Source of the DNA: Flavobacteriales bacterium
Lineage (GTDB): Bacteria > Bacteroidota > Bacteroidia > CAIKAF01
DNA: 64,000 bases
Assembly (NCBI GenBank): GCA_026418175.1
Contig: JAOABX010000003.1
Coordinates: 117,084 to 181,083, forward strand
Reading direction: 5' to 3'
Shown: positions 1,421 through 34,197 of the stretch, in pieces
Position numbering within the stretch: the stretch's first letter is position 1
How the letters are laid out: each line of letters opens with the position of its first letter
The notes under the pieces: generated by a model
Told to the model about the DNA's origin: nothing
The model's input: the letters and a program-made list of their open reading frames with translations, nothing else
Databases searched by the model: none
Position numbers and translations under genes: made by a program

Positions 1421-3016
1421 ATGAAGCACTATTTTATACTGGTATTTTTTTCTGCAGCATTGCTTTTTTCATTAAAAGCACAAACCCCCACATGGTCTGA
1501 AAACATTGCGTGTATTATGTACACTAACTGTACACGTTGTCATAATCCCGGGGGTGTTGGATTATTTTCACTGGTAGATTATGCCGATGCCTATGCTGCT
1601 CGGTTTATTGTACGAGATGCAGTACTGAATAAAGTAATGCCTCCCTGGCCGCCTGATCCAACATATCAAACCTATGCCCACGAACGATTGCTTACCCAAC
1701 AGGAAATAGATTTAATTGTAAATTGGGTAAATGGTGGTGCGCCCGAAGGCCCTCCCTCTGTTGCGCCAACTCCGCCGGTATATACTTCGGCAAGTGAGCT
1801 AAGTCAAATTGATTGGTCAGGTGTTATTCCAACATACACGAATGGTGCCACTCAGGATGATTATCGCTGTTTTGTAATTCCTACGGGATTATCTACTGAT
1901 AAGTTTGTCAAATCCATTGAAATACTACCAGGAAACAGAAGCATTGTGCATCACGTATTGGTTTTCGCAGATACCTCAAGTCAGGTTTTAACGCTGGATG
2001 CCAATGATCCAGGACCTGGATACACTAGTTTTGGCGGTACAGGTAGTAATACATCTAAACTAATTGCAGCTTGGGTTCCAGGGTCAGAATATATAACTTA
2101 TCCTGCAGGCATGGGGGTAAAATTACGTGCCAATTCATACATTATAATGCAAATTCACTATCCGGCCGGAACTCAGGGCCAGATTGATTCAACCCGTATT
2201 AACATAGAATATGCTCCTGCAAGTGGAAGGGAAGTTTCTTTAGATCCGGTGCTCAATCATATTACCAACATTTCTCCTCCTTTAATTATACCGCCTAATA
2301 CTGTAAAATCTTTTGTGGAAGAATATACTATTCCTAGTGTAACTCCATTCTCTGATTTTTTTACTGTATTATCTGTAGCACCACACATGCATAAGGTTGG
2401 AACTTCTATAAAGTGTTATGCAGTGTTGCCATCAAACGATACCATTCCACTGATACATATTCCTAAATGGGATTTTAAGTGGCAGGGACAATATAATTTC
2501 CGACAGCCCAAAGTATTTCCGGAGGGAACTAAACTGCGTGCAGAGGCAGTGTATGATAACACCAGCAATAATCCCAATGCGCCGAATCCGAATAATTGGG
2601 TCTTTGCCGGTGAAGCAACAAATGAAGAAATGATGATGGTTTATTTTGCTTATCTCTATGCTTTTCCAGGTGATGAAAATATTATTGTTGATACAACTAC
2701 CGTTAAACCTACCTACAACAACTGTAAATTTGTAGGGTTAGAAGATTGGGGAATAAAAGAAGCCAGCATTCAGTTATATCCTAATCCTACGGATGGTTTT
2801 TCCATGCTTCGGTTTGAAGCCGAAAAAAGTAATGATTTGGAAATAAAAATTTGTGATATGCAAGGCAAAGTGGTATATCAATACCATACATTTGTGCACT
2901 CTGGGGTTTTCACGTATCCTGTGGAGGTGAATGCCATCCCGGCAGGGCAGTATTTTGTGGTGTTAGGATGGGGTAAGGAAAAATACACCCGGCCATTGAT
3001 TGTTGTTAAGAATTAA
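1421..3016 (+). CDS. Secreted cytochrome c domain fused to a PHM/DBH-like copper type II monooxygenase domain, with a T9SS C-terminal sorting domain
   Basis: There is a signal peptide and one CXXCH heme motif (CTRCH). The later motifs HHVLVFAD, MQIHYP, APHMHKVG and EEMMMVYF match the CuH (HH...H) and CuM (HxH...M) ligand pattern of peptidylglycine alpha-hydroxylating monooxygenase / dopamine beta-hydroxylase. The C-terminus (LYPNPTDGFSMLRF...YFVVL) is a type A T9SS sorting domain. Confidence 0.6.
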   Translation: MKHYFILVFFSAALLFSLKAQTPTWSENIACIMYTNCTRCHNPGGVGLFSLVDYADAYAARFIVRDAVLNKVMPPWPPDPTYQTYAHERLLTQQEIDLIVNWVNGGAPEGPPSVAPTPPVYTSASELSQIDWSGVIPTYTNGATQDDYRCFVIPTGLSTDKFVKSIEILPGNRSIVHHVLVFADTSSQVLTLDANDPGPGYTSFGGTGSNTSKLIAAWVPGSEYITYPAGMGVKLRANSYIIMQIHYPAGTQGQIDSTRINIEYAPASGREVSLDPVLNHITNISPPLIIPPNTVKSFVEEYTIPSVTPFSDFFTVLSVAPHMHKVGTSIKCYAVLPSNDTIPLIHIPKWDFKWQGQYNFRQPKVFPEGTKLRAEAVYDNTSNNPNAPNPNNWVFAGEATNEEMMMVYFAYLYAFPGDENIIVDTTTVKPTYNNCKFVGLEDWGIKEASIQLYPNPTDGFSMLRFEAEKSNDLEIKICDMQGKVVYQYHTFVHSGVFTYPVEVNAIPAGQYFVVLGWGKEKYTRPLIVVKN

Positions 3017-3044
3017 GCTACATATACCATAGATATTCGAAAAA

Positions 3045-3074
3045 ACAGGCCTTTCAAAAGCCTGTTTTTTTTTA
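3045..3074 (+). terminator. Rho-independent terminator downstream of 1421..3016
   Basis: Hairpin acaggc / gcctgt (6-bp stem, 9-nt loop) followed by nine T (3066-3074), ~30 nt after the stop codon. Confidence 0.6.
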
Positions 3075-3503
3075 TTACTTTTCATTCAATAACTTGATAT
3101 TTTAATCTACTTTAAGAAAAAAGTTATTGGGGTATTTGAAAGTTATAAAAGGGTGTGATGGTAAAAGATGTTACCCTGAATTGGGGTACTTTTTCTAGAG
3201 CAGTGTACAGTTATTTAATCAATTGTTTTTAAATACGAAGCATTGGCTGAAAACAGGAAATTGAAACATCACACGGTAATTATTCAGAGAAATGCTAATT
3301 TATTGTATAAGCCGTGGAATTTTCTAAAGCATGAAGTTATAAATTAAGGGGGTGCTTGTTGATATGAGTAGTCATCTATTAAAAGTATTATCTTACACTG
3401 CCGATATGAATAAAAATATTGCAGAATATTGAATATCCTAATTTTCCAATTATACCCAAATGATAGCAATAATTTTGTTTTTAAAAACACAAAACGATAA
3501 AAC

Positions 3504-4206: not shown

Positions 4207-4734
4207 ATGGCAACTTATGTAATAGACGCAGCACATTCTGAAATACAGTTCAAAGTAAAACATTTGATGATTTCTACTGTAACTGGAAATTTTACCCGGT
4301 TTGATGCAACCATGCAAGCGGAGGACGATGCATTTTTAAATGCATCTATATCTTTTGAAGCAGATGTTAATAGTATTCAAACCGGAAATGAACAACGAGA
4401 TGGACATTTAAAAAGTGCAGATTTTTTCGATGCAGAGAATCATCCTAAAATTTCATTTGCTTCTTCTTCCTTCGTTTCAAAAGGAGATAATCACTATTCC
4501 TTAGAAGGTACTTTAACAATTCGTGGAAATAGTAAGAAGGTGGTATTAGATGTTGAATACCTTGGAAAGATGGTTGACTTTTATGGTAATGAAAAGCATG
4601 GATTTGAGCTGAATGGAAAAATTAATCGGAAAGACTTTGGGTTAGAATGGAGTGCAGTAACCGAAGCCGGTGGTATAGTAGTATCTGATGAGGTACGATT
4701 GCACATGAACGTGCAGATGCAAAAAGTTAATTAA
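4207..4734 (+). CDS. YceI-like family (polyisoprenoid-binding) protein
   Basis: 175 aa; the start YVIDAAHSEIQFKVKHLMISTVTGNFTRFD and later RDGHLKSADFFD are YceI family hallmarks. It pairs with the upstream Crp-family regulator. Confidence 0.75.
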   Translation: MATYVIDAAHSEIQFKVKHLMISTVTGNFTRFDATMQAEDDAFLNASISFEADVNSIQTGNEQRDGHLKSADFFDAENHPKISFASSSFVSKGDNHYSLEGTLTIRGNSKKVVLDVEYLGKMVDFYGNEKHGFELNGKINRKDFGLEWSAVTEAGGIVVSDEVRLHMNVQMQKVN

Positions 4735-6571
4735 ATAACGAAAGCGTTCCTTTCTGCACTTCCCCTGTATCCATTCGTTTCAGTACATAAAAATATACAC
4801 CGGAGGTAGCTTTTTCTCCGGTGTTATTTATTTTACCATTCCATAGTTGGTTGGGATCTTCTGTTTCAAAAACTGCATTTCCCCAGCGGTTATAAATGAT
4901 TAAATGAAATTTTAAAGGCAATCCAGGTATAAAAAGTATATCGTTTATTCCGTCATCATTGGGTGAAAATACATTGGGTACAACAATCGGACAAGATAAC
5001 CCGACAGTGAAGTTTTTAACGATAGTATCACTAGTAAATTCATTCGTAGCAATCAATGTAACCGAATAGGTTCCTGATGCGTTGTAGCATATATTTTGTG
5101 GGTTTTGCTCGTTTGAAGTATCAGGAATAGCTCCGGGGAAAAACCAACGCCAGGAGGTAGGTTCGTATTTAGTTTGATCTTTGAAGCTCAGGCAGCGATT
5201 TGGGCAGTTTTCAATAGATTGTGTAGTGTCAAATTGAGCAACTGGTGTAATATATTCACATTCTGTTTTACGAGATATGTTTGGTACTAAAACTATTGGG
5301 GTGTGTGATGCAACGTTCACTATTGGATCGGAAACTGTAAGGGTGATATTTGCCTCTATCAGTGGCTGCGCTGTAGTAAATAAGTTAATTGATTCTGAAA
5401 AGCATCCTGCATTGCCTTGCAAGTCTGTTTTTACTAAAGCGGCATCTCGTTGTGCAGTAGGGAGTCGAATATCTCCTGTCCAAATGAAACCCTTACCGGG
5501 TAAAAATTGCAATGCATATGGATAATTTGTAAAGTTAGGCGAAATGGGATAATGAGCAATCCATTCTTTGGTTCCATTGGTATTATACAATGCCAGAAAC
5601 ACATCCCGTTCATTCATTCCTCCCAAATCGCCAATGGCGGCAATTCGTCCGTTGGCAATACAGATATCACGGATTATTTCTCCTTGAGAAGTACCGCCAT
5701 CTAAAAAGATTTTGTTTTTTATAATACCATACTCATCACATTTAAGTAAGAATCCATCAAAATTTGAATTTGTAAAAAAACTATATCCTCCCAGCCAAAT
5801 TTCGTCCAAATCATTTATTCGTAACGACGTAGGCATATCGTCATACGTAGTGCTGTACACTTTGCTCCAAATTAAATTCCCGGAGGCATTTAACCTCATC
5901 AAAACTATATCTGTAAAAACATTCATTCGGGAAGCTGCAACGATCAAATCTCCGTTTGAAAGTTCACCACAACGTACTGGTATTAACTCTCCTTGTGCAC
6001 TGATAATTTTATCCCATAATGGGTTCCCGTTTCCATCTGTTTTAATAACTAAAATTTGTTCGGTGTTTATATTGTCGTAGGCTGATACAATTAACAAGTA
6101 ACCACCGGATTTAAGCTCTAAAACATCCACTCCGCGATCGCTAATGCTTATTGTGTAAAATTTACACCATTGGGGAAGTCCAGCTAAATTTAGTTTTAAT
6201 AAAAAAGCTTTTCGTTCACCCCCCATTCCAAAATCACCGGCTACACCGGTGATAATATAGCCGCCATCGGTTGTTTGAATGAGCTTGGATGCCAAACATG
6301 AATTTAAAATTCCATATTCCTGTATCCATTGATATTCGCCAGTTTCATCGGTTTTAATAACACCAATATTTATTTCGTTGTTTTGAGATGGATTGGTTGG
6401 AGTATTTATACACATGGCATACCCTTGATCGGAAGTTTGTAATACATAGGTGCCATAGTCATCTTCATTATTTCCATAGCTTTTTAAAAAAGTTATTTGC
6501 CCTGTAATGTGAACAGTGATGAGTAACAAAAGAAATAATCCTATAAATTTCATATGCAGGGATGAAGCCAT
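4727..6571 (-). CDS. Secreted repeat (beta-propeller-like) protein with a PKD-like domain and a type B T9SS C-terminal domain (gliding-motility-associated CTD)
   Basis: Signal peptide; an alternative ATG at 6553 gives MKFIGLFLLLL. The C-terminus PNVFSPNDDGINDILFIPGLPLKFHLIIYNRWGNAVF...GVYFYVLK is the type B (CHU_C-like) T9SS CTD. It overlaps the convergent YceI gene by 8 nt. Confidence 0.7.
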   Translation of the reverse strand: MASSLHMKFIGLFLLLLITVHITGQITFLKSYGNNEDDYGTYVLQTSDQGYAMCINTPTNPSQNNEINIGVIKTDETGEYQWIQEYGILNSCLASKLIQTTDGGYIITGVAGDFGMGGERKAFLLKLNLAGLPQWCKFYTISISDRGVDVLELKSGGYLLIVSAYDNINTEQILVIKTDGNGNPLWDKIISAQGELIPVRCGELSNGDLIVAASRMNVFTDIVLMRLNASGNLIWSKVYSTTYDDMPTSLRINDLDEIWLGGYSFFTNSNFDGFLLKCDEYGIIKNKIFLDGGTSQGEIIRDICIANGRIAAIGDLGGMNERDVFLALYNTNGTKEWIAHYPISPNFTNYPYALQFLPGKGFIWTGDIRLPTAQRDAALVKTDLQGNAGCFSESINLFTTAQPLIEANITLTVSDPIVNVASHTPIVLVPNISRKTECEYITPVAQFDTTQSIENCPNRCLSFKDQTKYEPTSWRWFFPGAIPDTSNEQNPQNICYNASGTYSVTLIATNEFTSDTIVKNFTVGLSCPIVVPNVFSPNDDGINDILFIPGLPLKFHLIIYNRWGNAVFETEDPNQLWNGKINNTGEKATSGVYFYVLKRMDTGEVQKGTLSLFN

Positions 6572-9798: not shown

Positions 9799-10392
9799 TT
9801 AAGTCTTGAATAATTCTGTGGCATTTACTTCAATGGTTTCGATACTTTGAATTTTTTCCGGACTGCATATATGTGATGGGTGAGAAGGCGGGGTGGGTAA
9901 TTTATACAAATACCAAAATCCCTTCCGATCATCAATGGTGGCATAAGTTTGTTGAAGGCGAATACTGTGAAGCGGAATACGCATTCCTCTTCCGTCAGCT
10001 TTCATTACGGCTTCTTTCATGGTCCATGCATCAAAAAATCGTTCTTGCGGATCAGGTGCAGAAAGTATCCATTGCATTTCCTGAGGAGAAAATTGCTTGG
10101 TAAATTTTATAACATCAATGGGTCGAATTTTTTCGCAATCAATACCAATTAATCCATTTCCTTGTAGCACAGCACAAGCAACTACATGGCCCGAGTGTGT
10201 TATGTTAAATGGAAAAAACGAAGGAAGTTGGGGTTTACCCATCGTGTCAGGAATGTATTGTTCAAGGATTTTATGATTGAATTCCAGTTTATGGATTGCT
10301 TTTAAGAGTAATAATTTTCCTGCAAGAAGTCTAATCCGGTCATCGTTTTTTCGGTATTGAAAAATTTCTTCCCGAAGTTTTTCTGGCAACAA
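9799..10392 (-). CDS. 4'-phosphopantetheinyl transferase (Sfp/EntD-type)
   Basis: Motifs GIDCEKIR and WTMKEAVMKADG match the PPTase consensus (G-x-D...W-x-x-KEA-x-x-K). The reading frame is open upstream to 10473 with no ATG (LVLYTWIDNLDIQIEENW...), so the real start is probably a non-ATG codon; the track uses TTG at 10390-10392. Confidence 0.65.
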   Translation of the reverse strand: MLPEKLREEIFQYRKNDDRIRLLAGKLLLLKAIHKLEFNHKILEQYIPDTMGKPQLPSFFPFNITHSGHVVACAVLQGNGLIGIDCEKIRPIDVIKFTKQFSPQEMQWILSAPDPQERFFDAWTMKEAVMKADGRGMRIPLHSIRLQQTYATIDDRKGFWYLYKLPTPPSHPSHICSPEKIQSIETIEVNATELFKT

Positions 10393-10462
10393 TTGTAGCC
10401 AGTTCTCCTCAATCTGGATGTCCAGGTTATCAATCCAAGTATATAAAACCAGTGCTTTCAGG

Positions 10463-11158
10463 TCAGTATTTGCTCAGGGTTTGATTTATCATTCCACAAA
10501 GTTCTGCGATGTGATCAAAAATCCAAAAATGATCACCCTCCCAACGTTCAAATCGAAAATTGCCACTTGTTTCTTTTTTCCAATCTGTTAGCTGGTCATC
10601 CGGTACATTTTCACGGGTTCCGCAAATTACTGTCATATCCACCGGATAGGGTGGTTGTGGGATGTATTTATATGTATCAATGGCATCAAAATCAGACCGA
10701 ATTACCGGTAGAAAAATCTGAAGCAGTTCTTCGTTATTCAGCACAGCTTCTGGCATTCCTTTAAGTTCTTTTAAATGCGCTACAAATTCATCATTCGTCA
10801 TCAAACTGCGTTTCTTGTTGTAATTACGGCTGGGAGCAATTTTGCTGGTAAGAAACAAATGCTTGGGTAACGGAAGTTTGTCTTCCCTAATATGCTGGGT
10901 AATTAAATGAGCCAAATATGCCCCCATTGAATGGCCAAAAATGGCATACGGTTCTTTAATTTGAGGCTTAAATTGCTTGTAGTATTCATCAGCAATTAAG
11001 TATAAATTCTTCAACAAAGGCTCTTTTATTCTTCGGCCTTTGCCCGGAGCTTCTCCATTGATCATTTGAATAGCCGGATCAAGAAAGGGCTCAAATTTGG
11101 CATAGGAAGTTTCATTGCCTCCGCCAAACGGCAGCATAAATAATTGAAATTGCTTCAC
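10463..11158 (-). CDS. Type II thioesterase (alpha/beta hydrolase, GrsT/TEII-like)
   Basis: 231 aa; nucleophile elbow GHSMGAYLA; C-terminal GDHFW; size and layout typical of editing thioesterases of NRPS/PKS/fatty-acyl systems. Confidence 0.65.
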   Translation of the reverse strand: MKQFQLFMLPFGGGNETSYAKFEPFLDPAIQMINGEAPGKGRRIKEPLLKNLYLIADEYYKQFKPQIKEPYAIFGHSMGAYLAHLITQHIREDKLPLPKHLFLTSKIAPSRNYNKKRSLMTNDEFVAHLKELKGMPEAVLNNEELLQIFLPVIRSDFDAIDTYKYIPQPPYPVDMTVICGTRENVPDDQLTDWKKETSGNFRFERWEGDHFWIFDHIAELCGMINQTLSKY

Positions 11159-11217: not shown

Positions 11218-13065
11218 TTAGTGAAGAATTAGTTTTTCTACATGTCGAAATCCATTGGAAGTAAATTCCATTAGATATATTCCTTTACGAATGCCTGAAA
11301 AGTCAAATGACTGTATAATGCTTCCCTTGGGATTAGCAATGAGTTCTTCATACACTTGCTCACCAAGCATATTGAAAACCCGAACTTGTAAATCATTATC
11401 AAGTAATTGGATATGCAAATTTACCAACCCTTGGGATGGATTTGGATATACAACTATCTGATTAGCTTCAAATGGATTTTCCAGGTTGAGATAAAACTGT
11501 ATGCAATTTGATGTGTCATAGCAGCCGGCAGTATTGGTTGCTACAAGGCAATAAGTGCCATTAAATGCTGGAGTATAAGTGGGTTGTATGCCTTCAGGAG
11601 CAGGAATAATACTATAATTGAATCCATTAAAATAAAGCCACTGGTAGGTGTAATTCCCACTCAAAGCGGTGGTGAGGGTTCCATTACCATTTACGCTAAT
11701 ACCCACATTCGAAAATCCGGGAGGCGGCATGGGTAATGCACTGATAGTAATAGGTTGGGTGGTAACGTTACATCCGGATATTGGGTTAATAATTTTTACT
11801 TTGTACGATCCTGGCTGCCCGGTTGTATAGGTATTTGAATTACCGGTTTGAACCGTTAATGTATCATTCAGGAACCATTCATACAGCATGCCCGGATATA
11901 CACTTAAAGTGGTTGTTTCGTAAGCACAAATAGCTTGCAAGGTGGCTTCAATTGTATCATTTACAGGGGTTGGGTAAATGCGAATGGTATCAGTAACTAT
12001 GATTTGATTTGCTTGGACTAATCCAATAGTAAAACTTGCTGTGTACCAATTGGGATGATTGATGTTGTAAGTTCCAGGCCCTGTTACAGTTCCTGCATAG
12101 GGCGCAGCAATATCGTTTTGACTTATGGCGTCTACTTCTGTTACGTTGAGTGAATAGGAAGTACCTGTTAATACAAAATTGATATTGTTCCAAGTTGGTA
12201 AACAGTTGTCAGAAATTTCGGGTCCATTCCAGCTAGAAGATCCGGTAGTGAATGTAGGGCGAAGATCAGCATTACCGTTCGAACAGTTTAATTCTTCAAT
12301 ATCTCCGCACCACCAAGTTTGACCACAGGCATTGATGGTGAGTGAATTTAAACGCATATTGAAAACAGTAGTAGTACATGTAACCGGATAGTTTCCGGGG
12401 GCAGGATAAAACTGCGGTGGAGGGTTTTGGCCGTTATATGTATTACCATTTCCAAAATCCCAACTCCACTGGGTGATTTGTGGTAATGGGAAATTTAATA
12501 AAGGCGAAAAAGTAACCCATGCAGAGTCACAGGCTTGCGATGGATTAAATGAAAAGCCGGCATTGCTACCGCTTCCAAGAGTAATTGATAACGGTAAGTT
12601 AAAAACTTGATTTTGCGACTGGTTTCCAATAGGAGTTGATACGGTTCCTCGAATGGTTATTACAACCGTATAATTTCCTTGTGAAATAGGAGTTCCACAG
12701 AAATTTATGCTGGCCAAAGTACCATTGGGTTGCGGATTATAGGTACAATTTCCCACATTACAATTCCATGAAATACCTGTTGGGAGTCCGGTTACATTTA
12801 AAATTTTCATTTCAATAAAATCCAACGAATCAAATAAGCCGCCTGATTGTACACTGGCATCTACTCTTCTGGGAGCCCAAAAAGATATGGTGTCGCTATA
12901 ATACTGACCAACTACGCCATTGTTTAGCACGCCACATGGCCCCATTGTATTAATACAGGCAGGATTAGGAGAACCATTACATTGACTGTAAGCCGAATAA
13001 ATAATAAATAAACTAAAACTTAAAATTAAAATGGATTTTAAATAAACATGTAAATTTTTTTTCAT
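11218..13065 (-). CDS. Secreted PKD-like repeat protein with a type A T9SS C-terminal sorting domain; paralog of 58521..60386
   Basis: Likely ATG at 13063-13065 (MKKNLHVYLKSILILSFSLFIIYSAYSQ signal peptide; the track start at 13071 is TTG). The C-terminus VVYPNPSQGLVNLHIQ...GIYLMEF is a T9SS CTD. Block-wise similarity to the 58521..60386 product (e.g. NAGFSFNPSQACDS vs NAGFSMAPPLGCEP; WSWDFGNGNTYNGQNPPPQFYPAPGNYPV vs YSWNFGNMTQSNAQNPPPVLYSTAGNYPV). Confidence 0.7.
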   Translation of the reverse strand: MKKNLHVYLKSILILSFSLFIIYSAYSQCNGSPNPACINTMGPCGVLNNGVVGQYYSDTISFWAPRRVDASVQSGGLFDSLDFIEMKILNVTGLPTGISWNCNVGNCTYNPQPNGTLASINFCGTPISQGNYTVVITIRGTVSTPIGNQSQNQVFNLPLSITLGSGSNAGFSFNPSQACDSAWVTFSPLLNFPLPQITQWSWDFGNGNTYNGQNPPPQFYPAPGNYPVTCTTTVFNMRLNSLTINACGQTWWCGDIEELNCSNGNADLRPTFTTGSSSWNGPEISDNCLPTWNNINFVLTGTSYSLNVTEVDAISQNDIAAPYAGTVTGPGTYNINHPNWYTASFTIGLVQANQIIVTDTIRIYPTPVNDTIEATLQAICAYETTTLSVYPGMLYEWFLNDTLTVQTGNSNTYTTGQPGSYKVKIINPISGCNVTTQPITISALPMPPPGFSNVGISVNGNGTLTTALSGNYTYQWLYFNGFNYSIIPAPEGIQPTYTPAFNGTYCLVATNTAGCYDTSNCIQFYLNLENPFEANQIVVYPNPSQGLVNLHIQLLDNDLQVRVFNMLGEQVYEELIANPKGSIIQSFDFSGIRKGIYLMEFTSNGFRHVEKLILH

Positions 13066-13071
13066 GGTCAA

Positions 13072-14190
13072 TTATATTTTAGTTATTAAAAATTTCTTTT
13101 TTGTTAATCTATCAACAATCCAAGCAATTAATAAATAAACAGGAGTAATTATAAAATAAAAGAACATGGACAAGAAAGTATATCCATGATATTTTGAAGC
13201 GTGTATGCCAATTACATAATCTATCAAAGGGAAAAAAGCCATATATGCAATAATTGTTATAAATGGGATGAGAAATGACCCTCCAATCATTACTGTATTA
13301 AATTTTTTATTTAAATATTCTTTTCTGTATTTAATAAAAGCAATATAGTGAATAGAAGAAAAAATTAAACCTAAAATAAGGGATAGGTAAAATGGAGAAA
13401 TTTTTATCAAAATGTTGGCCCAAAAGTTTGGCTTTGGATGTATTTCAATATTAATATAATCTTGCGGAACACCCGAAAAAACCCATTTGGCCTGGTATGG
13501 TAGCGTTCCTTCAGCTGGCTCACCTAAATTAGTTATCACGTGAGTTTTATCATTAGCAATTGTAAGGGTTACACTTATAATTCCGACTTTACTCCAATAC
13601 TTTGCAGGAGAAAGAGAATACTTAAAAATATATTCATTAATCCAATCGTTTCTGTCAATCGAAGCGGAAGTCCAATACGTTACTTCAATCTTGTGCATGC
13701 CACTATCTAAACTTAATTCAAAGTATTTCATGTCATGCAAATTCATTATTTCATAATCTTCATAATCACTCCATTTAACAATAGCTTTGGGTTCTCCGGT
13801 CAATTCTTCGGGTTTATAGAGATAATAAAACCCATAAAAATTGTTTGTATCTGGAATGTAAAAGCTTTCCGGAACATCTAAAAGTTCTATAGGCTTTTCA
13901 TCCACTTTAATAGTAAAATTACTTCTAAAGTTGTATGCTAAAAAAAGCATGGGAACTTGCTTTCCGCTTTTTTTGCAATCAATGAGGTAGTTAATTTTAA
14001 CAAATGCATTTTGTATATCGTTACTTACAGAAATATGGATATCTTCCATAACAATTTCCACATATCTACTTATGAAAGCAGATGTTCCATATTGACCTGT
14101 AATTATAGGATTAGCCATGTTGGCATATAAAAAGCTTTTATTATATAATAAAAGCAACGCCGGTAAAAGAGTTGATTTTATTAAATTCAT
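13072..14190 (-). CDS. Hypothetical membrane protein (signal peptide, ~250-aa exported domain, C-terminal cluster of about four TM helices)
   Basis: 372 aa; no recognisable motifs. Its stop at 13072-13074 abuts the start of the downstream T9SS cargo gene, suggesting coupling. Confidence 0.4.
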   Translation of the reverse strand: MNLIKSTLLPALLLLYNKSFLYANMANPIITGQYGTSAFISRYVEIVMEDIHISVSNDIQNAFVKINYLIDCKKSGKQVPMLFLAYNFRSNFTIKVDEKPIELLDVPESFYIPDTNNFYGFYYLYKPEELTGEPKAIVKWSDYEDYEIMNLHDMKYFELSLDSGMHKIEVTYWTSASIDRNDWINEYIFKYSLSPAKYWSKVGIISVTLTIANDKTHVITNLGEPAEGTLPYQAKWVFSGVPQDYINIEIHPKPNFWANILIKISPFYLSLILGLIFSSIHYIAFIKYRKEYLNKKFNTVMIGGSFLIPFITIIAYMAFFPLIDYVIGIHASKYHGYTFLSMFFYFIITPVYLLIAWIVDRLTKKKFLITKI

Positions 14191-14197
14191 GGATGGT

Positions 14198-15091
14198 TTA
14201 TAGTAATATTTTATTTAATAGAGATTCGTTTTTCCTCCACTCGGGCTTTACCTTTACATTCAAAGATAAATAAACTTTTTGATTCAAAAATTTTTCTAGA
14301 GCCAATCGGGCTTCTGTGCCGGTTTTTTTTAATGCTTTTCCATTTTTACCAATAATGATGGCTTTCTGGCTTTCTTTTTCAACCCAAATTTCTGCATCTA
14401 TTCGTGTGATGTTGACTTCTTCTTTAAATGATAAAATAGCAACATGGGAACTGTATGGAATTTCCTGGCTATAATTTTCCAGTATTTTTTCCCGAATTAT
14501 TTCAGAAGCAAAAAACCGTAAATGCCTATTACTTATGTCTTCTTTATCAAAATAAGGGGGGTGCTCAGGAAGTAATTTTAATATGGTTTGAAAAAGCTCA
14601 TAGGTATTAAATTGATGAAGTGCAGATATTGCCAAAATTTCGGCTTTGGGGAATAAAATCCGAATTTTTTTTCCAAATATTTGAACAGCATCCTGGCTCA
14701 AGTTATCTATTTTATTTATGGCAATTACTACTGGAATATTGGTTTTTTGTAATTGATTGATTACAGAAAGAAAAGTGTCGCCTCCCTGAGTAATTGAATC
14801 TGGGTCGGTGGCGTCTAATACAAGCAAAAACACATCGGCATCAGAAAGAGATTCTTGCACCAGGTCCATCATTTTTTCCTGAAGTTTATATGCGGGTTCA
14901 ATAATACCCGGAGAGTCAGAAAAAATTACCTGATGATTTTCATCGTTATAAATGCCCAATATTCGGTGCCGGGTAGTTTGTGCTTTGGAGGTTACAATAG
15001 AGAGTCTTTCGCCCAACAAGGCGTTCATTAAGGTAGATTTTCCGGCATTGGGCTTGCCTAGGATATTAACATAACCAGCTTTATGACCCAT
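14198..15091 (-). CDS. era: GTPase Era
   Basis: G1 GKPNAGKST, G3 DSPG, G4 NKID; C-terminal KH domain; 297 aa. Confidence 0.9.
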   Translation of the reverse strand: MGHKAGYVNILGKPNAGKSTLMNALLGERLSIVTSKAQTTRHRILGIYNDENHQVIFSDSPGIIEPAYKLQEKMMDLVQESLSDADVFLLVLDATDPDSITQGGDTFLSVINQLQKTNIPVVIAINKIDNLSQDAVQIFGKKIRILFPKAEILAISALHQFNTYELFQTILKLLPEHPPYFDKEDISNRHLRFFASEIIREKILENYSQEIPYSSHVAILSFKEEVNITRIDAEIWVEKESQKAIIIGKNGKALKKTGTEARLALEKFLNQKVYLSLNVKVKPEWRKNESLLNKILL

Positions 15092-15099
15092 TTGAAATT

Positions 15100-15129
15100 T
15101 TGCAATAAAGATAATTTATATTATTTTTG
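15100..15129 (+). promoter_or_regulatory. Candidate Bacteroidota sigma-A promoter for the tRNA (-33 TTG at 15100-15102, -7 TAtttTTG at 15122-15129)
   Basis: Matches the Bacteroidetes -33 TTG / -7 TAnnTTTG consensus with a 19-bp spacer; the predicted transcription start lies a few nt upstream of the mature tRNA 5' end at 15144. Confidence 0.3.
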
Positions 15130-15143
15130 TACCCACATTACAT

Positions 15144-15216
15144 TGCGGGGTGGAGAAGTTGGTATCTCGTCGGGCTCATAACCCGAAGGCCGCTGGTTCG
15201 AGTCCAGCCCCCGCTA
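15144..15216 (+). tRNA. tRNA-Met (anticodon CAT), probably initiator tRNA-fMet
   Basis: Hand-folded cloverleaf: acceptor tgcgggg / ccccgct with an unpaired 1:72 (T.T); D-stem gaga / tctc; anticodon arm tcggg-CTCATAA-cccga with three consecutive G-C pairs next to the loop (an initiator hallmark); 5-nt variable loop; T-arm gctgg-TTCGAGT-ccagc; discriminator A; CCA not encoded. Confidence 0.8.
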
Positions 15217-25279: not shown

Positions 25280-27265
25280 ATGAAAGATTTTAAAAAAATA
25301 TTTTCTGTTTCATTCATTGCAGTTTTGTTTGCTTCGTATGTCTTAATAAATTCAATGAATGAATTAGGATTTTACCGTTCCGACTCCTTGCAAAACTTTG
25401 TTGAAGAGCCTGTTGATAATTCATTTCATACAAATAAAGAAAAGCAAGTATTAAAGAAATTATTAAGTAACCGTTCAGTATTGGAACCCGGTCAATATTT
25501 TCATAATTCGCAGTTATGTGGTACTTGCCACGGGTATGATCCTACCGGAAATTCCAGCCATGATTCACAAGGAAATGATGTGAATTTGCACGATGATTGG
25601 ATGTCAAGTATGATGGCACTATCGGCCAAAGATCCTTTCTGGAGAGCTAAGGTAAGTCACGAAATATTAGTAAATCCTGGAATTTCATTAGAAATTCAAA
25701 ATAAATGTACTTCTTGCCATGCACCCCAGGGTCATTATACCGCTTTATTTAATGGACAGACGCATTATACCTTGGCTGATTTGTATAATGATACGTTAGG
25801 ACTTGATGGGGTTTCTTGTGTTGCATGTCATTCAATTGGTCCCAATGGATTGGGCAATATGTTTACCGGTCATATCCCCTATGATACGTTGTTTCAACTT
25901 TATGGGCCATTCATAGACCCATTAACCGGCCCCATGCAACTATACACAGGCTTTACTCCTACATATAGCCCACATGTAAGCGAGGGAAGATTTTGTTCTC
26001 CTTGTCATACACTAATAACTCAATCAGTTGATTTAAACGGAATTCCTACAGGCAGATCTTTCGTAGAGCAAGCAACCTATCATGAATGGGTTAATTCTAA
26101 TTTTTCATTGGATTATATAAGTTGCCAGCAATGCCACATGCCACGCTTACAAGATAGTATTATTATTGCTAAAGACATGTCAACCAAACGATTCCCCTTC
26201 AATCAGCATATTTTTATGGGTAGTAACGAATTTATGCTGAAACTAATTAAAAATAATAAAGCTGATTTGGGCGTGGAGGTACCTGATTCAAATTTTGATT
26301 CAACCATCGAGGCCACATTGGTTAATTTACAGCAAAAAACATTAACCATGGACTTGATTGTTGATAGTGTTACGTTTGACACAGCATATTTTTCTGTGAA
26401 ATTGGTAAATCTGGCTGGGCATAAATTTCCATCCGGTTATCCTAGCCGTAGAGCAATTTTACAATTTGCGGTAGTAACATTGACCGGCGATACATTATTT
26501 AAATCCGGTTTTTTTGATGGTAACTATGAAGTACAAGGGATAAATTCAACGTTTGAACCGCATTATGATATTATTTCTCAACCTGATCAGGTTCAAATTT
26601 ATGAAATGGTGATGGGGGATGTTAATGGAAATAAAACTACAGTATTATTACGAGCAGATACCATGCTGAAAGATAACCGATTAGTGCCGGAGGGCTTTTC
26701 AACTTCACATCCTGTGTATGATACAACCCGAATTATATTGGGTATTGCAGATGACGATTTTAATAAGTTTAATAATGGTAATGAAGGGAGTGGTTGGGAT
26801 ATTATTCAGTACAGGGTGCCAATCAACGGATATAGTCAGCCATTCAATGTAGTGTCACGGATTTATTATCAGGCTGTACCTCCTGGTTATCTTGCTGAAA
26901 TGTTTAGCCATACGAGCAATGAAATTGATCTTTTTAAAGATTTGTATACAGCGGCTGATAAAGAGCCGGTGCTGATGGCAGAAAGAACCATTCAAGGAAT
27001 TGCCCTTAGTGTTCAAAATCAACCGCAAATAGCTCCTACCATTTGGCCTGATCCTACTTCCGATGGTTGGATTAATATTCGTTGGAAAGATATTCAAGCC
27101 GATGAAGTGGTGGTTATGAATGCAAATGGGCAGATCGTTACAATTTATCACATTCAGCCAGGAATTCAAACAGTTAGAATCCAACTTCCGGAATCATCTG
27201 GCATATATTTGGTTGATGTGCGTGCTTCTGGAAGGCGGTCTGTACAAAAGGTTATCCGAAAATAA
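25280..27265 (+). CDS. Secreted pentaheme c-type cytochrome with a type A T9SS C-terminal sorting domain
   Basis: N-terminal hydrophobic signal/anchor; five CXXCH motifs in the first ~300 aa (CGTCH, CTSCH, CVACH, CSPCH, CQQCH); a ~280-aa middle region with no cysteine motifs; C-terminus IWPDPTSDGWINIRW...GIYLVDVRASG is a T9SS CTD. Confidence 0.65.
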   Translation: MKDFKKIFSVSFIAVLFASYVLINSMNELGFYRSDSLQNFVEEPVDNSFHTNKEKQVLKKLLSNRSVLEPGQYFHNSQLCGTCHGYDPTGNSSHDSQGNDVNLHDDWMSSMMALSAKDPFWRAKVSHEILVNPGISLEIQNKCTSCHAPQGHYTALFNGQTHYTLADLYNDTLGLDGVSCVACHSIGPNGLGNMFTGHIPYDTLFQLYGPFIDPLTGPMQLYTGFTPTYSPHVSEGRFCSPCHTLITQSVDLNGIPTGRSFVEQATYHEWVNSNFSLDYISCQQCHMPRLQDSIIIAKDMSTKRFPFNQHIFMGSNEFMLKLIKNNKADLGVEVPDSNFDSTIEATLVNLQQKTLTMDLIVDSVTFDTAYFSVKLVNLAGHKFPSGYPSRRAILQFAVVTLTGDTLFKSGFFDGNYEVQGINSTFEPHYDIISQPDQVQIYEMVMGDVNGNKTTVLLRADTMLKDNRLVPEGFSTSHPVYDTTRIILGIADDDFNKFNNGNEGSGWDIIQYRVPINGYSQPFNVVSRIYYQAVPPGYLAEMFSHTSNEIDLFKDLYTAADKEPVLMAERTIQGIALSVQNQPQIAPTIWPDPTSDGWINIRWKDIQADEVVVMNANGQIVTIYHIQPGIQTVRIQLPESSGIYLVDVRASGRRSVQKVIRK

Positions 27266-27339: not shown

Positions 27340-30312
27340 ATGAAAACATTTACAAAAAAGTTATCAGTTTTATCCATCGGATTGATAGCTGGAGCAGCTA
27401 CAGCCCAAATAAGTTTTACAGATGGAAATAGTTTATTACATTCTGAAACTGGCGTACTAGGTAGTAATGCAAATATTTTCAGCGGTAATGCAGTATGCGT
27501 AGTAGACGTTAATTTTGATGGGTATGATGATATTGTCAAGTTAGATAATGGGCGATATGTACGAATTGAATATCAACAATCAGGAGGAACATTCACCCAC
27601 CAATATATTGGCGATTTTGGAACTATGACCAGCTGTTGGGGAATGAGTGCCGCCGATGTTGATAAAAATGGTTATGCTGATATACTTTTTAATGGTGGTT
27701 CTCAGGCTCGTTTAATGAAACTCAACAATACGGGTACAGGGATATTGGGTTCTATTATTAATCTGCCTAATGGTAATATTTTTAGTCAAAATGGAAATTT
27801 TTGCGATGCAAACAATGATGGTTGGTTAGATATTTTTATGTGTAATGACGTAGATGAAAGTAGATTGTGGTTAAATGATGGAACTGGTAATTTCCCGACA
27901 GAAAATAATAATACATATATAAATTTTGATTTAACTCCAGGTACGGGTCCTGGCCCTGCTCTTTCCGGGGGGCCACCAAATCATCAATATGATGAATCAG
28001 GAAATTATAGTAGTATATGGACTGATATAGATGATGATGGAGATGTAGATTTGTACATAGTTCATTGTAGGCAAGGAGCTAACCCAGGAGATTTACGTCG
28101 TACCAATGTATTGTTTAGAAACAATGGCAATGGTACATATACTGGAATTAACCAATCCGCACAAATAGGAATTTTAGCCAGCAATGATCAGGATTGGACA
28201 GCCAGCTTTGGTGATATTGATAATGATGGAGATTTTGATGTATTTATGACAAAACATGATAAGGCTCAAGAGTGGTACACTAATAATGGTAATGGTACTT
28301 TTAGTGCCACTGCTTCTGGGTCTTTTACTTATCCTAATAATACGGCTATTCAATCATTGTACGAAGATTTTGATAATGATGGATTTGTGGATTTATTATT
28401 TACCGGAATGGGTGTTCAACAAAGGCTTTATCGTAATAACGGGAATGGTACCTTTACACAAGTTCCTAATGCTACCCTTGGTTTTGGAAGTAATAATTTT
28501 GCATCATTTGCTACAGGTGACTTAAATCATGATGGAAAAATAGATATTTATGCTAGCTATCATACCAGCTATAATACACCTAGTTCAAGCATTGTAGACC
28601 GGCTTTGGTTAAATTCAACATCTAATAGTAATAACTTTTTAACATTAAATTTAAAAGGAACTACCAGTAACAAAGAAGGAATAGGTGCACGTGCATATAT
28701 TTATGGAGCCTGGGGAGTACAGACCCGTGAAGTTCGATCCAGTGAAAGTTATGGTACGCTTAATAGTTACAGCTTGCATTTTGGTTTAGGTACTGCTACT
28801 CAAGTTGATTCAATTGTTGTTCGCTGGCCCTCTGGCCAAAAATCGAAAATTGTTTGTCCTGTTTCAGCCAATCAATTTGTAAACATTGTAGAAGGTACGC
28901 CTACTTGCTTTTTAGCATGTTCTTCAATTAATATTACCCCCAGTGGTTCAACAACTATTTGTCCGGGAGATGTTCTTACGTTGAGCGCTCCGACAGGTGC
29001 TTATACATATCTTTGGTCTAATGGTGCTACCACACAATCGATCGATGTAAATACTGCAGGTACTTACAATGTAATTGTATCATCAGGTGCAGGATGCTCT
29101 GCTACAGCACCAAGCATTGTTGTTACGATGAATCCCCCAGAAAACCCGGTTATTACTGCGCAGGGTGATTTGGAGTTCTGCCCGGGTGGAAGTGTAGTGC
29201 TTGAAGCTGCTGGAGGTTCTCCGGTTTGGAATACGGGTGAAACTACATCTACAATTACAGCAACACAAGATGGAGAATACTATTTCTATATTCAAGGCCT
29301 TTGCCAGCCATGGTACTCAGATACGCTCGTTGTAACATTGTTTGATAATACCCCCCCGTCTGCTTCTGGAACTACTATAACCTCTCCGCAGTCTGTTACA
29401 TTAAATGCTACAGGTACCAATGTGAGCTGGTGGGATGCACCTTCAGGGGGTAATCTCTTGGGAACTGGAAACACGTTTGTTACTCCTGTATTGAGCAGTA
29501 CAACAACTTATTATGTTCAAGATGATCATCAATACAATGGGTCAATAGGTAACGTAGGCTCAACAGATATTGCATCGGCCGGGTATTCAACAGGAACAAT
29601 TAACGGATATTTAATTTTTGATGTCCTAACCAATTGCCGGTTGAACTCTGTTGAGGTATCTACCGATTCTGTTGGTACCAGAGTAATTGAATTACGCGAT
29701 GCCTCAGGAGCTGTTTTACAAGCTCTTTCTGTAAATATTCCTGCTGGAACATCTACCGTTGATTTGGGCTTTGATTTAACCCCCGGTACTTATCAGCTAG
29801 GTACCAATACCGCACAAAACAATTCTGAATTTGGTGCAAATTCTCCATTTTTGAAGAGAAACCAAAGTGGAGCTTCTTATCCGTACGTACTTACTGATGT
29901 GCTTTCTATAACAGGTGGACATACAGGTACTGCCCCAACTTCTGCTGCGTACTATTATTTCTATAATTGGGAAGTGGAAGTATTACCCATTGTTTGTCCT
30001 AGTGATCGCACTCCAGTTACTGTAACATATGTTAATACTTCAGGAATAGATAATGAAGAAGCCTCTCAATTCTTAATATATCCTAACCCTGCTACTAACT
30101 GGGTGAATGTTGAGTTTAATGTTTCGGAAACCGCACCTGCTCAACTTGAAGTAACTGATATGACCGGTCGTAAAGTGGTGTTAATAGATTTAGGAACAGT
30201 ACATGGTAAAGTAACTCGTATATTGCAAACGGATGGATTTGCTCAAGGTGTTTACAATGTAACACTTACCGTAGGTGAAAAAACGTATCATACGCTGGTT
30301 GTAATTAAATAA
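27340..30312 (+). CDS. FG-GAP/VCBS seven-bladed propeller plus ASPIC/UnbV domain protein (CRTAC1-like) with Ig-like repeats and a T9SS C-terminal sorting domain
   Basis: Seven D-x-D/N-x-D-G-x-x-D Ca-binding blade motifs (DVNFDGYDDIV, DVDKNGYADIL, DANNDGWLDIF, DIDDDGDVDLY, DIDNDGDFDVF, DFDNDGFVDLL, DLNHDGKIDIY). UnbV_ASPIC signature KEGIGARAYIYG...LHFGLGTATQVDSIVVRWPSGQ. CTD IYPNPATNWVNVEF...GVYNVTL. Confidence 0.75.
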   Translation: MKTFTKKLSVLSIGLIAGAATAQISFTDGNSLLHSETGVLGSNANIFSGNAVCVVDVNFDGYDDIVKLDNGRYVRIEYQQSGGTFTHQYIGDFGTMTSCWGMSAADVDKNGYADILFNGGSQARLMKLNNTGTGILGSIINLPNGNIFSQNGNFCDANNDGWLDIFMCNDVDESRLWLNDGTGNFPTENNNTYINFDLTPGTGPGPALSGGPPNHQYDESGNYSSIWTDIDDDGDVDLYIVHCRQGANPGDLRRTNVLFRNNGNGTYTGINQSAQIGILASNDQDWTASFGDIDNDGDFDVFMTKHDKAQEWYTNNGNGTFSATASGSFTYPNNTAIQSLYEDFDNDGFVDLLFTGMGVQQRLYRNNGNGTFTQVPNATLGFGSNNFASFATGDLNHDGKIDIYASYHTSYNTPSSSIVDRLWLNSTSNSNNFLTLNLKGTTSNKEGIGARAYIYGAWGVQTREVRSSESYGTLNSYSLHFGLGTATQVDSIVVRWPSGQKSKIVCPVSANQFVNIVEGTPTCFLACSSINITPSGSTTICPGDVLTLSAPTGAYTYLWSNGATTQSIDVNTAGTYNVIVSSGAGCSATAPSIVVTMNPPENPVITAQGDLEFCPGGSVVLEAAGGSPVWNTGETTSTITATQDGEYYFYIQGLCQPWYSDTLVVTLFDNTPPSASGTTITSPQSVTLNATGTNVSWWDAPSGGNLLGTGNTFVTPVLSSTTTYYVQDDHQYNGSIGNVGSTDIASAGYSTGTINGYLIFDVLTNCRLNSVEVSTDSVGTRVIELRDASGAVLQALSVNIPAGTSTVDLGFDLTPGTYQLGTNTAQNNSEFGANSPFLKRNQSGASYPYVLTDVLSITGGHTGTAPTSAAYYYFYNWEVEVLPIVCPSDRTPVTVTYVNTSGIDNEEASQFLIYPNPATNWVNVEFNVSETAPAQLEVTDMTGRKVVLIDLGTVHGKVTRILQTDGFAQGVYNVTLTVGEKTYHTLVVIK

Positions 30313-32697: not shown

Positions 32698-34197
32698 CTA
32701 TCTTTTAATCAATGATTGTTGATGTATTTTTTCGCTACTGATTAGTTGCATGAGATAAATGCCCGGAGCAAGGTCATCAATCATGATAATTGAATTTGTA
32801 TTATTACTACTTAAGTTGGTTGATTTAATCAATTTTCCATCCATTGAATAAAAGTTTAATTTTTCAAATGAATGATTTGATATGGATGGTACAATCACAT
32901 AATTATCAGCCGGATTTGGATAAATCATCAAAGTAGTTTCTAACTCATCATTTATACCTACAAATGGATTTATTATTACCGTACGACAAGTACTTGCTTC
33001 ACACCCTCCGATACCTGTTACAGTTAAACAAACCGTAAATGTATCAACCGAAGTATAGACATGAGTAGGATTTTGAAGCGTTGAAGTATTTCCATCTCCG
33101 AAATCCCATGACCAGGAAGTGCCACCTGTTGAGTTATCTATGAATTGTACATTAAAGCCAGAAACGTTGCTATTAAAGTTAGCACTTGGATATGCTCCAA
33201 TGATCAAATTGCTTCCATTATCAGTTCCATTCATCGAAGGATTGGAGGAAACTACCCGGATGCGATACCCTGTTCCGGCAGCAGTGCTTCCAGGTATTGT
33301 TGCATTTATTGATCCTGATGTGGTGGATGTGATACTGCCGATTGGAGTTGGAGAAGCAAAAGATCCCAAGGCATCAGAAAGTTGAGCTGTAAAAACATTA
33401 CCTGAATTAAATGTTCCTGATGCTGAATAATTAACTACAACTGCATCATTGGGACATAGTGTATCTTCAGAAACAGAGGTAGTTGTAATAGTATTTGTTA
33501 CAGCAGCAGTTCCTGAAATTACAATTTCATCTACTGAAAGGGGGGGGTCTGATGCGCTGAACGAAGAATTATTTACAAAACGAAATCCAAAGCGCAAGGT
33601 AGCTTGATTGTTCCAAATAGCATTCGTTTGAGTTAAAGTTTGCCAAGAGGAAACATTGTAAATATTTCCTAATTGTAATTGCCAGGTAGCTCCCCCATTG
33701 GTACTATAATATAATTCACCATAGGTGGCAGAAGAGCCTGCGCATAAATAATAACAGGAAAAAGTAACGTTGGTATATCCAAGCGTTGAAATATCGTTGC
33801 TCATCTTAGCAAAATAATTTTGATTACCATTACATAAAAACCCACCATCCGACGCTAAAAAGTTAGCATTACTGATACCCGCAGCTTGTGCTGCTTGATT
33901 TACGATATGTAAATAATTACTATTCGGTGAGCCAGTTATTGCTCCCGGTTGACTGGGAGTATTTCCAACGGAAGTAGAAAAACCAAAGCAAGGTTCATTA
34001 AATGATCCACCGTTATAGCTGTTATTAACTACCCAAAGATTATACCCGTTAGTAACTGAACTTACATCTGATGAATTAAGGGTAAATGTGTGAGTAGCAC
34101 CATTAAAATTTTCAGAATACAAGGTAGTTTGCGAATATATTTTTATTAATGGAAATCCTAAAGCAAATAATAATAGTAGAAGTTTTCTCATAATCAT
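32698..34197 (-). CDS. Secreted T9SS cargo protein: N-terminal ~240-aa domain, one copy of the GNVFTAQLSD module, a PKD-like domain (WSWDFGDGNTS) and a T9SS CTD
   Basis: Signal peptide; aa 266-333 GNVFTAQLSDALGSFASPTPIGSITSTTSGSINATIPGSTAAGTGYRIRVVSSNPSMNGTDNGSNL; PKD signature WSWDFGDGNT; CTD IYPNPADNYVIVPS...GIYLMQL. Confidence 0.7.
   Translation of the reverse strand: MIMRKLLLLLFALGFPLIKIYSQTTLYSENFNGATHTFTLNSSDVSSVTNGYNLWVVNNSYNGGSFNEPCFGFSTSVGNTPSQPGAITGSPNSNYLHIVNQAAQAAGISNANFLASDGGFLCNGNQNYFAKMSNDISTLGYTNVTFSCYYLCAGSSATYGELYYSTNGGATWQLQLGNIYNVSSWQTLTQTNAIWNNQATLRFGFRFVNNSSFSASDPPLSVDEIVISGTAAVTNTITTTSVSEDTLCPNDAVVVNYSASGTFNSGNVFTAQLSDALGSFASPTPIGSITSTTSGSINATIPGSTAAGTGYRIRVVSSNPSMNGTDNGSNLIIGAYPSANFNSNVSGFNVQFIDNSTGGTSWSWDFGDGNTSTLQNPTHVYTSVDTFTVCLTVTGIGGCEASTCRTVIINPFVGINDELETTLMIYPNPADNYVIVPSISNHSFEKLNFYSMDGKLIKSTNLSSNNTNSIIMIDDLAPGIYLMQLISSEKIHQQSLIKR

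Follow-up and report, generated by a model that had tools for sequence, protein, structure and literature searches.

The product of the gene at 1421..3016 is likely to be an exported, ascorbate-independent monooxygenase of the PHM/DBH superfamily that carries a built-in c-type cytochrome and hydroxylates a substrate other than peptidyl-glycine. Its four-part architecture, in which a signal peptide is followed by a putative cytochrome c domain, a PHM/DBH-type dicopper core, and a T9SS type A C-terminal domain, has been established computationally, and the predicted ligand sets for a single His/Met heme c, a His3 CuH site, and a His2Met CuM site proved complete and conserved in the sequences compared. 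The features are given below in coordinates of the window, meaning the whole 64-kb stretch of DNA that was analysed.

1421..3016, + strand: complete gene with an ATG start, encoding 531 aa plus a stop codon (ORF list).
1421..1480, + strand: Sec signal peptide, residues 1-20, MKHYFILVFFSAALLFSLKA, with inferred cleavage before Q21 (read from the sequence).
1481..1735, + strand: putative mono-heme class I-like cytochrome c domain, residues 21-105 (CXXCH and MPP invariance, homology to relatives).
nt 1529-1543, + strand: CXXCH motif, C37, C40, and H41 (motif scan).
nt 1637-1645, + strand: axial Met motif, M73-P74-P75 (motif scan).
1736..1810, + strand: proline-rich linker from the heme domain to the copper core, residues 106-130, GAPEGPPSVAPTPPVY... 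(sequence; G110, P116, and P119 invariant in 64 homologues).
1847..2164, + strand: CuH (electron-transfer copper) domain, Cu2_monooxygen (PF01082), residues 143-248, with ligands H177, H178, and H246.
2252..2656, + strand: CuM (oxygen-activating copper) domain, Cu2_monoox_C (PF03712), residues 278-412, with ligands H322, H324, and M404.
2774..3004, + strand: type A T9SS C-terminal sorting domain, residues 452-528 (Por_Secre_tail, PF18962; TIGR04183).

The product is 100% identical to MCX7743341.1 from a Flavobacteriales bacterium MAG (P0001 in our protein set), which is annotated solely as a “T9SS type A sorting domain-containing protein”; an NCBIfam scan likewise returned nothing beyond the TIGR04183 tail, with no family model covering the remainder. 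The ORF and motifs quoted in a first-pass annotation, made from the sequence alone, were all recovered at their places in the ORF list and by a motif scan of the whole 531-aa protein. Only one C..CH (CTRCH, residues 37-41), one HH (177-178), one H.H (HMH, 322-324), and one MPP (73-75) occur, together with IHY at 245-247 and EEMMM at 402-406. As each unique motif sits on a predicted ligand position, a chance gathering of histidines is excluded.

The dicopper assignment proposed in the first-pass annotation is borne out by Pfam, both Cu2 monooxygenase domains scoring above their curated cut-offs (PF01082, 35.4 bits against 30; PF03712, 28.7 bits against 23), and the two models also match 61 and 62 of 64 homologues, respectively. 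A single-sequence search of PDB sequences with the query gave no match, and a family profile was required to reach DBH (E=4.2e-07) and PHM (E about 9e-06). The ligands were mapped by reading these profile alignments residue by residue. The family motif vHHvLvy corresponds to VHHMLLF in rat PHM (H107/H108) and VHHMEVF in DBH, assigning H177 and H178; lqiHY corresponds to LQVHY (H172) and LEVHY, assigning H246; and pHmHlvgk corresponds to VHTHHLGK (H242/H244) and LHTHLTGR, assigning H322 and H324. The sixth ligand was obtained from the match of tdEMmlvyf to SDEMCNLYI in rat PHM (M314), the DBH alignment stopping earlier. All six copper ligands named previously thus stand, with the refinement that, of the three Met residues in EEMMM, it is the first, M404, that serves as the CuM ligand. 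In addition, Y148 and Q244 are equivalent to PHM Y79 and Q170.

Conservation was followed in a close set of 64 homologues, with identity down to 46%, and in a wide set of 149 cluster representatives, mutually <=50% identical and reaching about 36% identity to the query. H177, H178, Q244, H246, H322, H324, E403, and M404 are unchanged in 64/64 homologues. Among the representatives, the CuH ligands are held in 144-147/149 and the CuM ligands H322, H324, and M404 in 142/146, 145/146, and 134/139, respectively, so that the six copper ligands, like the heme ligands described below, are conserved in both sets. The full ten-residue heme and copper set is found in 123 of 130 full-length representatives (mutually <=50% identical).

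Structure prediction places the core in the same group independently of the motifs. An AF2 model of the full-length protein, built on the 64-sequence alignment, reached a mean pLDDT of 89.3 and a pTM of 0.75, and the top 30 matches in a Foldseek search against the PDB were PHM and DBH entries (1phm at E=3.7e-13, target TM 0.66, 15-18% identity). The predicted core demonstrably has the two-domain fold of PHM and DBH. Neither sequence searching nor Foldseek against the PDB found a solved structure of a bacterial relative.

For the N-terminal domain, the CXXCH motif noted previously is single and invariant, whereas the curated Pfam model is not reached, Cytochrome_CBB3 scoring 17.5 bits on residues 33-79 against a cut-off of 27. 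Because its own match is sub-threshold, this domain is assigned from its invariant motifs and from its homology to relatives in which the threshold is passed. C37, C40, H41, M73, P74, and P75 are unchanged in 64/64 homologues (down to 46% identity), and in the diverse representatives the CXXCH residues are held in 139-140/140 and M73-P74-P75 in 147/147. The equivalent domain does exceed this Pfam cut-off of 27 in the distant relatives P0196 (34.1 bits) and P0204 (37.1 bits), and the query heme domain shares 38% identity with the segment from P0204 (pairwise E=1e-27). Weak Pfam matches across the 64 homologues all fall in heme c families (Cytochrome_CBB3 in 15/64, Haem_bd in 3, Cytochrom_C in 2), and a heme-domain profile searched against the PDB gave marginal matches to CcoP (E=0.047) and to the heme-domain tail of hydrazine synthase alpha. 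When modelled alone, the domain was predicted poorly (pLDDT 66.7) and Foldseek gave no match with E<5; a three-helix arrangement appears in both the full-length and the domain-only models. The sole alternative distal ligand, H87, varies among the representatives and M73 is universal, from which M73 is taken to be the axial ligand and the heme to be His/Met coordinated. On these homologies, the identification of the N-terminal domain as a putative cytochrome c is regarded as secure enough, its direct support being weaker than that for the copper core.

The two modules appear to be physically coupled. The linker between them has a pLDDT of about 90-95 in the AF2 model, suggesting that it is packed rather than floppy. 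C31 and C435 co-vary in the 64 homologues, both being present in 58 and neither in 6; this suggests a disulfide that would staple the heme domain to the core, probably linking helix 1 of the heme domain with the stretch that follows the CuM domain, and such a staple would suit a fixed electron-transfer geometry.

The size of the family was assessed by an exhaustive HMMER search of cluster representatives (50% identity) with residues 1-445 of the query, which yielded 12,723 matches at E<=1e-3, of which 7,001 pass E<=1e-10 and 2,399 pass E<=1e-30. Among the best 150 of about 12,700, almost every alignment begins near query residue 5-25 and runs to around residue 430, covering heme domain and core together; most of the few with a later start are fragments truncated at the N-terminus. 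This alignment of heme domain plus core spans phyla among the same best 150 of about 12,700, with or without a T9SS tail. Judged from these alignments, the predicted cytochrome and the copper core can be shown to form one conserved evolutionary unit, an obligate fusion. At least 590 loci occur among GTDB bacterial species representatives. The close relatives belong to the Bacteroidota (Flavobacteriales, Chitinophagales, and Saprospiraceae), and the family is frequent among the freshwater, sludge, and soil Bacteroidota that break down particulate organic matter, its members being annotated merely as “T9SS sorting domain protein” or “hypothetical”.

With regard to export, Q21, the residue following the inferred signal peptide, is conserved in >=90% of the 64 homologues. 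The T9SS C-terminal domain recognised in the first-pass annotation passes both curated cut-offs (Por_Secre_tail, 37.6 bits against 27; TIGR04183, 37.7 bits against 23), and in the Foldseek search the tail of the model matched solved T9SS C-terminal domains. At least 8 T9SS-tailed ORFs lie within the 64-kb window, which indicates that this uncultured organism has a T9SS. One of these ORFs, at 25280..27265, encodes a protein with five CXXCH motifs and a tail that passes the TIGR04183 cut-off. A full-text literature search, whose coverage misses most subscription-journal papers, returned no report of T9SS-exported cytochromes c.

A T9SS-like tail is present in 120/149 representatives, and longer relatives place Ig, PKD, or InlB-repeat stalks ahead of it. 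High-GC relatives of 30-40% identity retain all the ligand motifs without the tail and carry instead TIG, EF-hand/dockerin-like, or membrane-anchor modules, or an N-terminal AhpC/TSA redoxin. The joining of heme domain and copper core is thus ancient and widely distributed, and the T9SS tail is the Bacteroidota solution to its export. Accessory modules in 20 long relatives were confined to Ig, PKD, TIG, InlB-repeat, EF-hand, and redoxin domains, and no carbohydrate-binding or other substrate-targeting module was found in them; a polysaccharide substrate is accordingly unsupported. Tandem arrays of 2-4 paralogues occur at 6/81 loci, two of which (L001 and L002) are apparently the same contig region, and such arrays would fit substrate diversification.

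The genomic surroundings were similarly surveyed. The gene, with gaps of 81 nt upstream and 487 nt downstream, looks monocistronic; it is flanked by a DUF4837 lipoprotein-like gene and a Crp-like regulator, the latter being followed by YceI. Promoter and terminator scans gave matches no commoner than in shuffled sequence, and neither Rfam nor tRNA scans gave a match in the vicinity of the gene. Neighbour clustering over 80 loci found no conserved partner gene, the commonest family appearing in 9/80 and the recurring ones being housekeeping, and no reductase or substrate gene was a conserved neighbour at these loci. With only housekeeping genes recurring at the 80 loci, the attempt to deduce a partner reductase, a peptide precursor, or a polysaccharide-utilisation locus from operon structure was rejected.

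In the mechanism envisaged, Sec would take the protein to the periplasm, where it would acquire its covalent heme and two coppers and fold, and the T9SS would then carry it to the cell surface or the medium. The heme (H41/M73) would accept single electrons from an external reductant and hand them to CuH (H177/H178/H246), which would pass them over the interdomain cleft to CuM (H322/H324/M404); the reduced CuM would then bind O2 and hydroxylate a C-H bond of the bound substrate in the manner of PHM and DBH. That the heme would take the place of ascorbate as electron source, as proposed in the first-pass annotation, is a reasonable inference. Counting against such a relay, a single heme delivers one electron per step and two are consumed per turnover. 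The small or hydrophobic residues at the positions of the PHM carboxylate anchors suggest a neutral or hydrophobic extracellular substrate, such a lining near CuM arguing against one that bears a carboxylate. The nearest functional precedent is CjX183, a c-type cytochrome domain that reduces secreted bacterial LPMOs with H2O2 leakage below that seen with ascorbate (PMC8981238).

A broader proposal is that the Bacteroidota surface bears very abundant, unrecognised extracellular heme-copper monooxygenases, independent of ascorbate, that oxygenate recalcitrant environmental organic matter and receive electrons wired outward from the cell via T9SS-exported cytochromes (e.g., 25280..27265); in function they would resemble the LPMO/cytochrome systems known from fungi and Cellvibrio. 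This must be considered speculative and, on balance, doubtful. If true, it would amount to an outward electron-transfer chain driving extracellular oxygenation instead of respiration.

The most serious rival to a substrate-hydroxylating monooxygenase is a cytochrome c-dependent oxidase or peroxide handler, whose copper pair would reduce O2, H2O2, or superoxide and so make or detoxify extracellular reactive oxygen with no organic substrate being oxygenated. Uncoupled PHM and DBH do yield H2O2, and the absence of recognisable substrate anchors in the 64 homologues and the wider representatives would suit such a role, as would the lack of a substrate-targeting module in the 20 long relatives and of a conserved partner gene. 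Furthermore, in distant relatives this core comes fused to a redoxin (AhpC/TSA) or peroxiredoxin domain, which may hint that thiol or peroxide chemistry was part of the ancestral function. The strict retention of a hydroxylase-type site and cleft, as well as the paralogue expansions, speak against this explanation, and it is judged unlikely.

A true PHM orthologue, performing extracellular peptidyl-glycine alpha-hydroxylation as the first step of peptide C-terminal amidation, could be argued from PHM being the best structural match and from Y408, which aligns with PHM Y318 and is retained in 60/64 close homologues. The latter residue nevertheless falls to 60/138 in the wider family, and identity to PHM is just 15-18%. 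More tellingly, the position of R240, which forms the salt bridge to the glycine carboxylate in PHM, is occupied by A/G/Q/L/F/M in the 64 homologues and never by R, and that of N316 by L/I/Q/V/M/A and never by N; the five residues most often seen among the 149 representatives are A/F/S/L/T at the R240 position and L/V/I/F/M at the N316 position. A PAL/NHL lyase domain is absent both from the protein and from the 14 commonest neighbour families at 80 loci. PHM orthology was rejected on the missing R240 and N316 anchors and is held to be very improbable, and with these anchors absent classical peptide amidation chemistry is unlikely. The peptides or aromatics that had been suggested as substrates in the first-pass annotation found no supporting evidence.

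The two minor rivals are reverse electron flow and a non-catalytic role. In the first, the copper site would oxidise the substrate and the heme would receive the electrons for an external acceptor, making the protein a dehydrogenase/oxidase module. The direction of electron transfer is not fixed by sequence, and a T9SS-tailed multi-heme cytochrome elsewhere in the window could equally be an acceptor; however, no PHM/DBH superfamily member is known to work in reverse, CuM with its Met ligand is a site adapted to activating O2, and a His/Met heme c is typically of high potential, which suits a donor relay beside CuH, so that little credence is given to this direction. A non-catalytic surface protein, such as a heme/copper scavenger or an adhesin keeping the old fold, is extremely improbable: 4/130 full-length representatives have lost most copper ligands while retaining the heme motif, indicating that such derivatives exist in the family, but the window protein and 95% of the representatives have all ten ligands, and ligand invariance over thousands of lineages points to selection on the redox sites.

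The preferred reading, a cytochrome-fed monooxygenase, bears on two matters of copper enzymology. PHM and DBH are textbook animal enzymes that require ascorbate, a compound not generally made by bacteria, and the manner in which electrons cross the solvent gap of roughly 11 Å between their coppers is still debated. If the heme is the donor, the ascorbate dependence of the superfamily would be expected not to hold here, and the family would reveal how bacteria run PHM/DBH-type chemistry without it. A covalently fused, spectroscopically visible heme donor would also permit triggered single-electron injection to probe copper-copper transfer. Should extracellular substrates be oxygenated, the family would supply a missing piece of Bacteroidota oxidative carbon turnover and possibly a new class of biocatalyst. 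The full-text literature searched, coverage of which misses most subscription-journal papers, contained no characterised bacterial member, only the eukaryotic PHM, DBH, and TBH and the LPMO-cytochrome analogue. The copper chemistry is of a known kind; the apparent novelty lies in the constant pairing of the core with a cytochrome c, in the predicted T9SS export, and in the sheer size of the family, although prior mention is possible.

In comparison with known systems, the protein shares its CuH and CuM ligand sets with PHM (the PAM catalytic core, EC 1.14.17.3; PDB 1phm and 1sdw) at an identity of only 15-18%. It differs in the N-terminal putative cytochrome c domain with its predicted covalent heme, which PHM lacks, in the unconserved R240 and N316 anchors and missing PAL lyase partner, in being bacterial and, as predicted, T9SS-exported where PHM resides in secretory granules, and in its electron source, presumably the heme where PHM uses ascorbate. 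In DBH, tyramine beta-hydroxylase, and MOXD1 (PDB 4zel), the contrast lies at the N-terminus, the DBH domain being a DOMON beta-sandwich and not a c-type cytochrome; the product of 1421..3016 has no Pfam match to DOMON, and its N-terminal domain is helical with a CXXCH. DBH additionally has a C-terminal dimerisation domain and needs its ascorbate regenerated through cytochrome b561. As the PHM anchors are absent and neither a PAL nor a DOMON domain is present, the family, as classified from its sequences, forms a bacterial clade of its own within the copper type II ascorbate-dependent monooxygenase superfamily and is not an orthologue of PHM or DBH.

Closer in sequence are the redoxin(AhpC/TSA)-cytochrome c-PHM-like proteins of planctomycete-type genomes (P0204, locus L082), whose homologous core is 30-32% identical and has all the ligand motifs; they differ in an extra N-terminal thiol-redoxin domain, duplicated units, membrane anchors, and the want of a T9SS tail, and are presumably periplasmic. 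The LPMO systems, namely those served by the cytochrome domain of fungal cellobiose dehydrogenase and by CjX183 of Cellvibrio japonicus Cbp2D (PMC8981238), are unrelated in fold, and their copper is a mononuclear histidine brace as opposed to the two separated coppers predicted here. LPMOs draw their electrons from a second protein, but the present heme and copper sites lie on a single polypeptide, and neither a carbohydrate-binding module (in 20 long relatives) nor a polysaccharide-utilisation context (at 80 loci) was found. The logic would nonetheless be common to both, in that a cytochrome domain reduces a secreted copper oxygenase: the LPMO donors are small His/Met c-type (or b-type) cytochromes in place of a small-molecule reductant, and disulfides steady the extracellular heme domain, as the probable C31-C435 bond would here.

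At least eight ORFs within the 64 kb window carry T9SS sorting domains, seven of type A and one of type B/CHU_C:

1421..3016 (+), the heme-copper enzyme
4727..6571, T9SS-tailed ORF
11218..13071, T9SS PKD protein
25280..27265 (+), multi-heme cytochrome candidate, 661 aa, five CXXCH motifs and a T9SS type A tail
27340..30312, T9SS-tailed ORF
32698..34197, T9SS-tailed ORF
56597..58429, T9SS-tailed ORF
58521..60386, T9SS-tailed ORF

The set includes an M43 peptidase as well as an FG-GAP/ASPIC protein, and the source organism therefore has a large T9SS secretome. The type A tail of the five-heme protein was matched by TIGR04183 (33.9 bits against a cut-off of 23), together with weak Cytochrome_C7 and MtrC/MtrF-like matches, making its product, as judged from sequence, a candidate T9SS-exported multi-heme cytochrome, possibly an extracellular electron conduit or a partner of the heme-copper enzyme. 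No T9SS-exported cytochromes c were reported in the literature searched.

Adjoining the PKD protein gene is a 4'-phosphopantetheinyl transferase/thioesterase pair, with no synthase gene visible nearby, and five sizeable ORFs in the window had no Pfam match at E≤1e-5:

9799..11158 (-), 4'-phosphopantetheinyl transferase and stand-alone thioesterase, side by side
13072..14190 (-), ORF without Pfam match, 372 aa
15655..17808 (+), ORF without Pfam match, 717 aa
36724..39744 (+), ORF without Pfam match, 1006 aa
49942..51789 (+), ORF without Pfam match, 615 aa
60445..61863 (-), ORF without Pfam match, 472 aa

The intergenic region 3' of the heme-copper enzyme gene (3017..3503, +) is unusually long at 487 nt and gave no Rfam match; it holds one terminator-like hairpin at 3172..3188, the site count in the scan being no higher than in shuffled sequence.

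Paralogues of the heme-copper enzyme occur in tandem, in 2-4 copies, in some Flavobacteriales MAGs (L001 10001..16605, with L002 being the same array; further arrays at loci L003, L004, L005, and L019). These share 56-63% identity with the query and retain the ligands in every copy, suggesting that substrate specificity has diversified. Four family representatives (P0229, P0234, P0251, and P0265) have lost 4-6 of the six copper ligands, with CXXCH and the axial Met still present, and may be heme-only derivatives, either pseudo-enzymes or electron carriers. At the planctomycete-type locus L082, P0204 (4171..7926) has membrane segments and carries the unit [AhpC/TSA redoxin - cytochrome c - PHM-like] in duplicate. 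Among its neighbours at 11284..15188, two more AhpC/TSA-redoxin-domain genes adjoin a PSCyt1/PSCyt2/PSD1 protein; the locus hints at a link of the wider family to thiol or peroxide. The Bacteroidota-type T9SS gene was also found on contigs bearing titles such as 'Candidatus Competibacteraceae' and 'Synechococcus sp.' (L005, L006, L008, and L068), which probably represent mislabelled or contaminated bins.

Among 64 homologues of the heme-copper enzyme, C31 (nt 1511-1513) and C435 (nt 2723-2725) are both present in 58 and both missing from the other 6, and this perfect co-variation predicts an interdomain disulfide between them. C150, which is without a conserved partner, is kept in 57 of the 64 and occupies the position of C81 in PHM.
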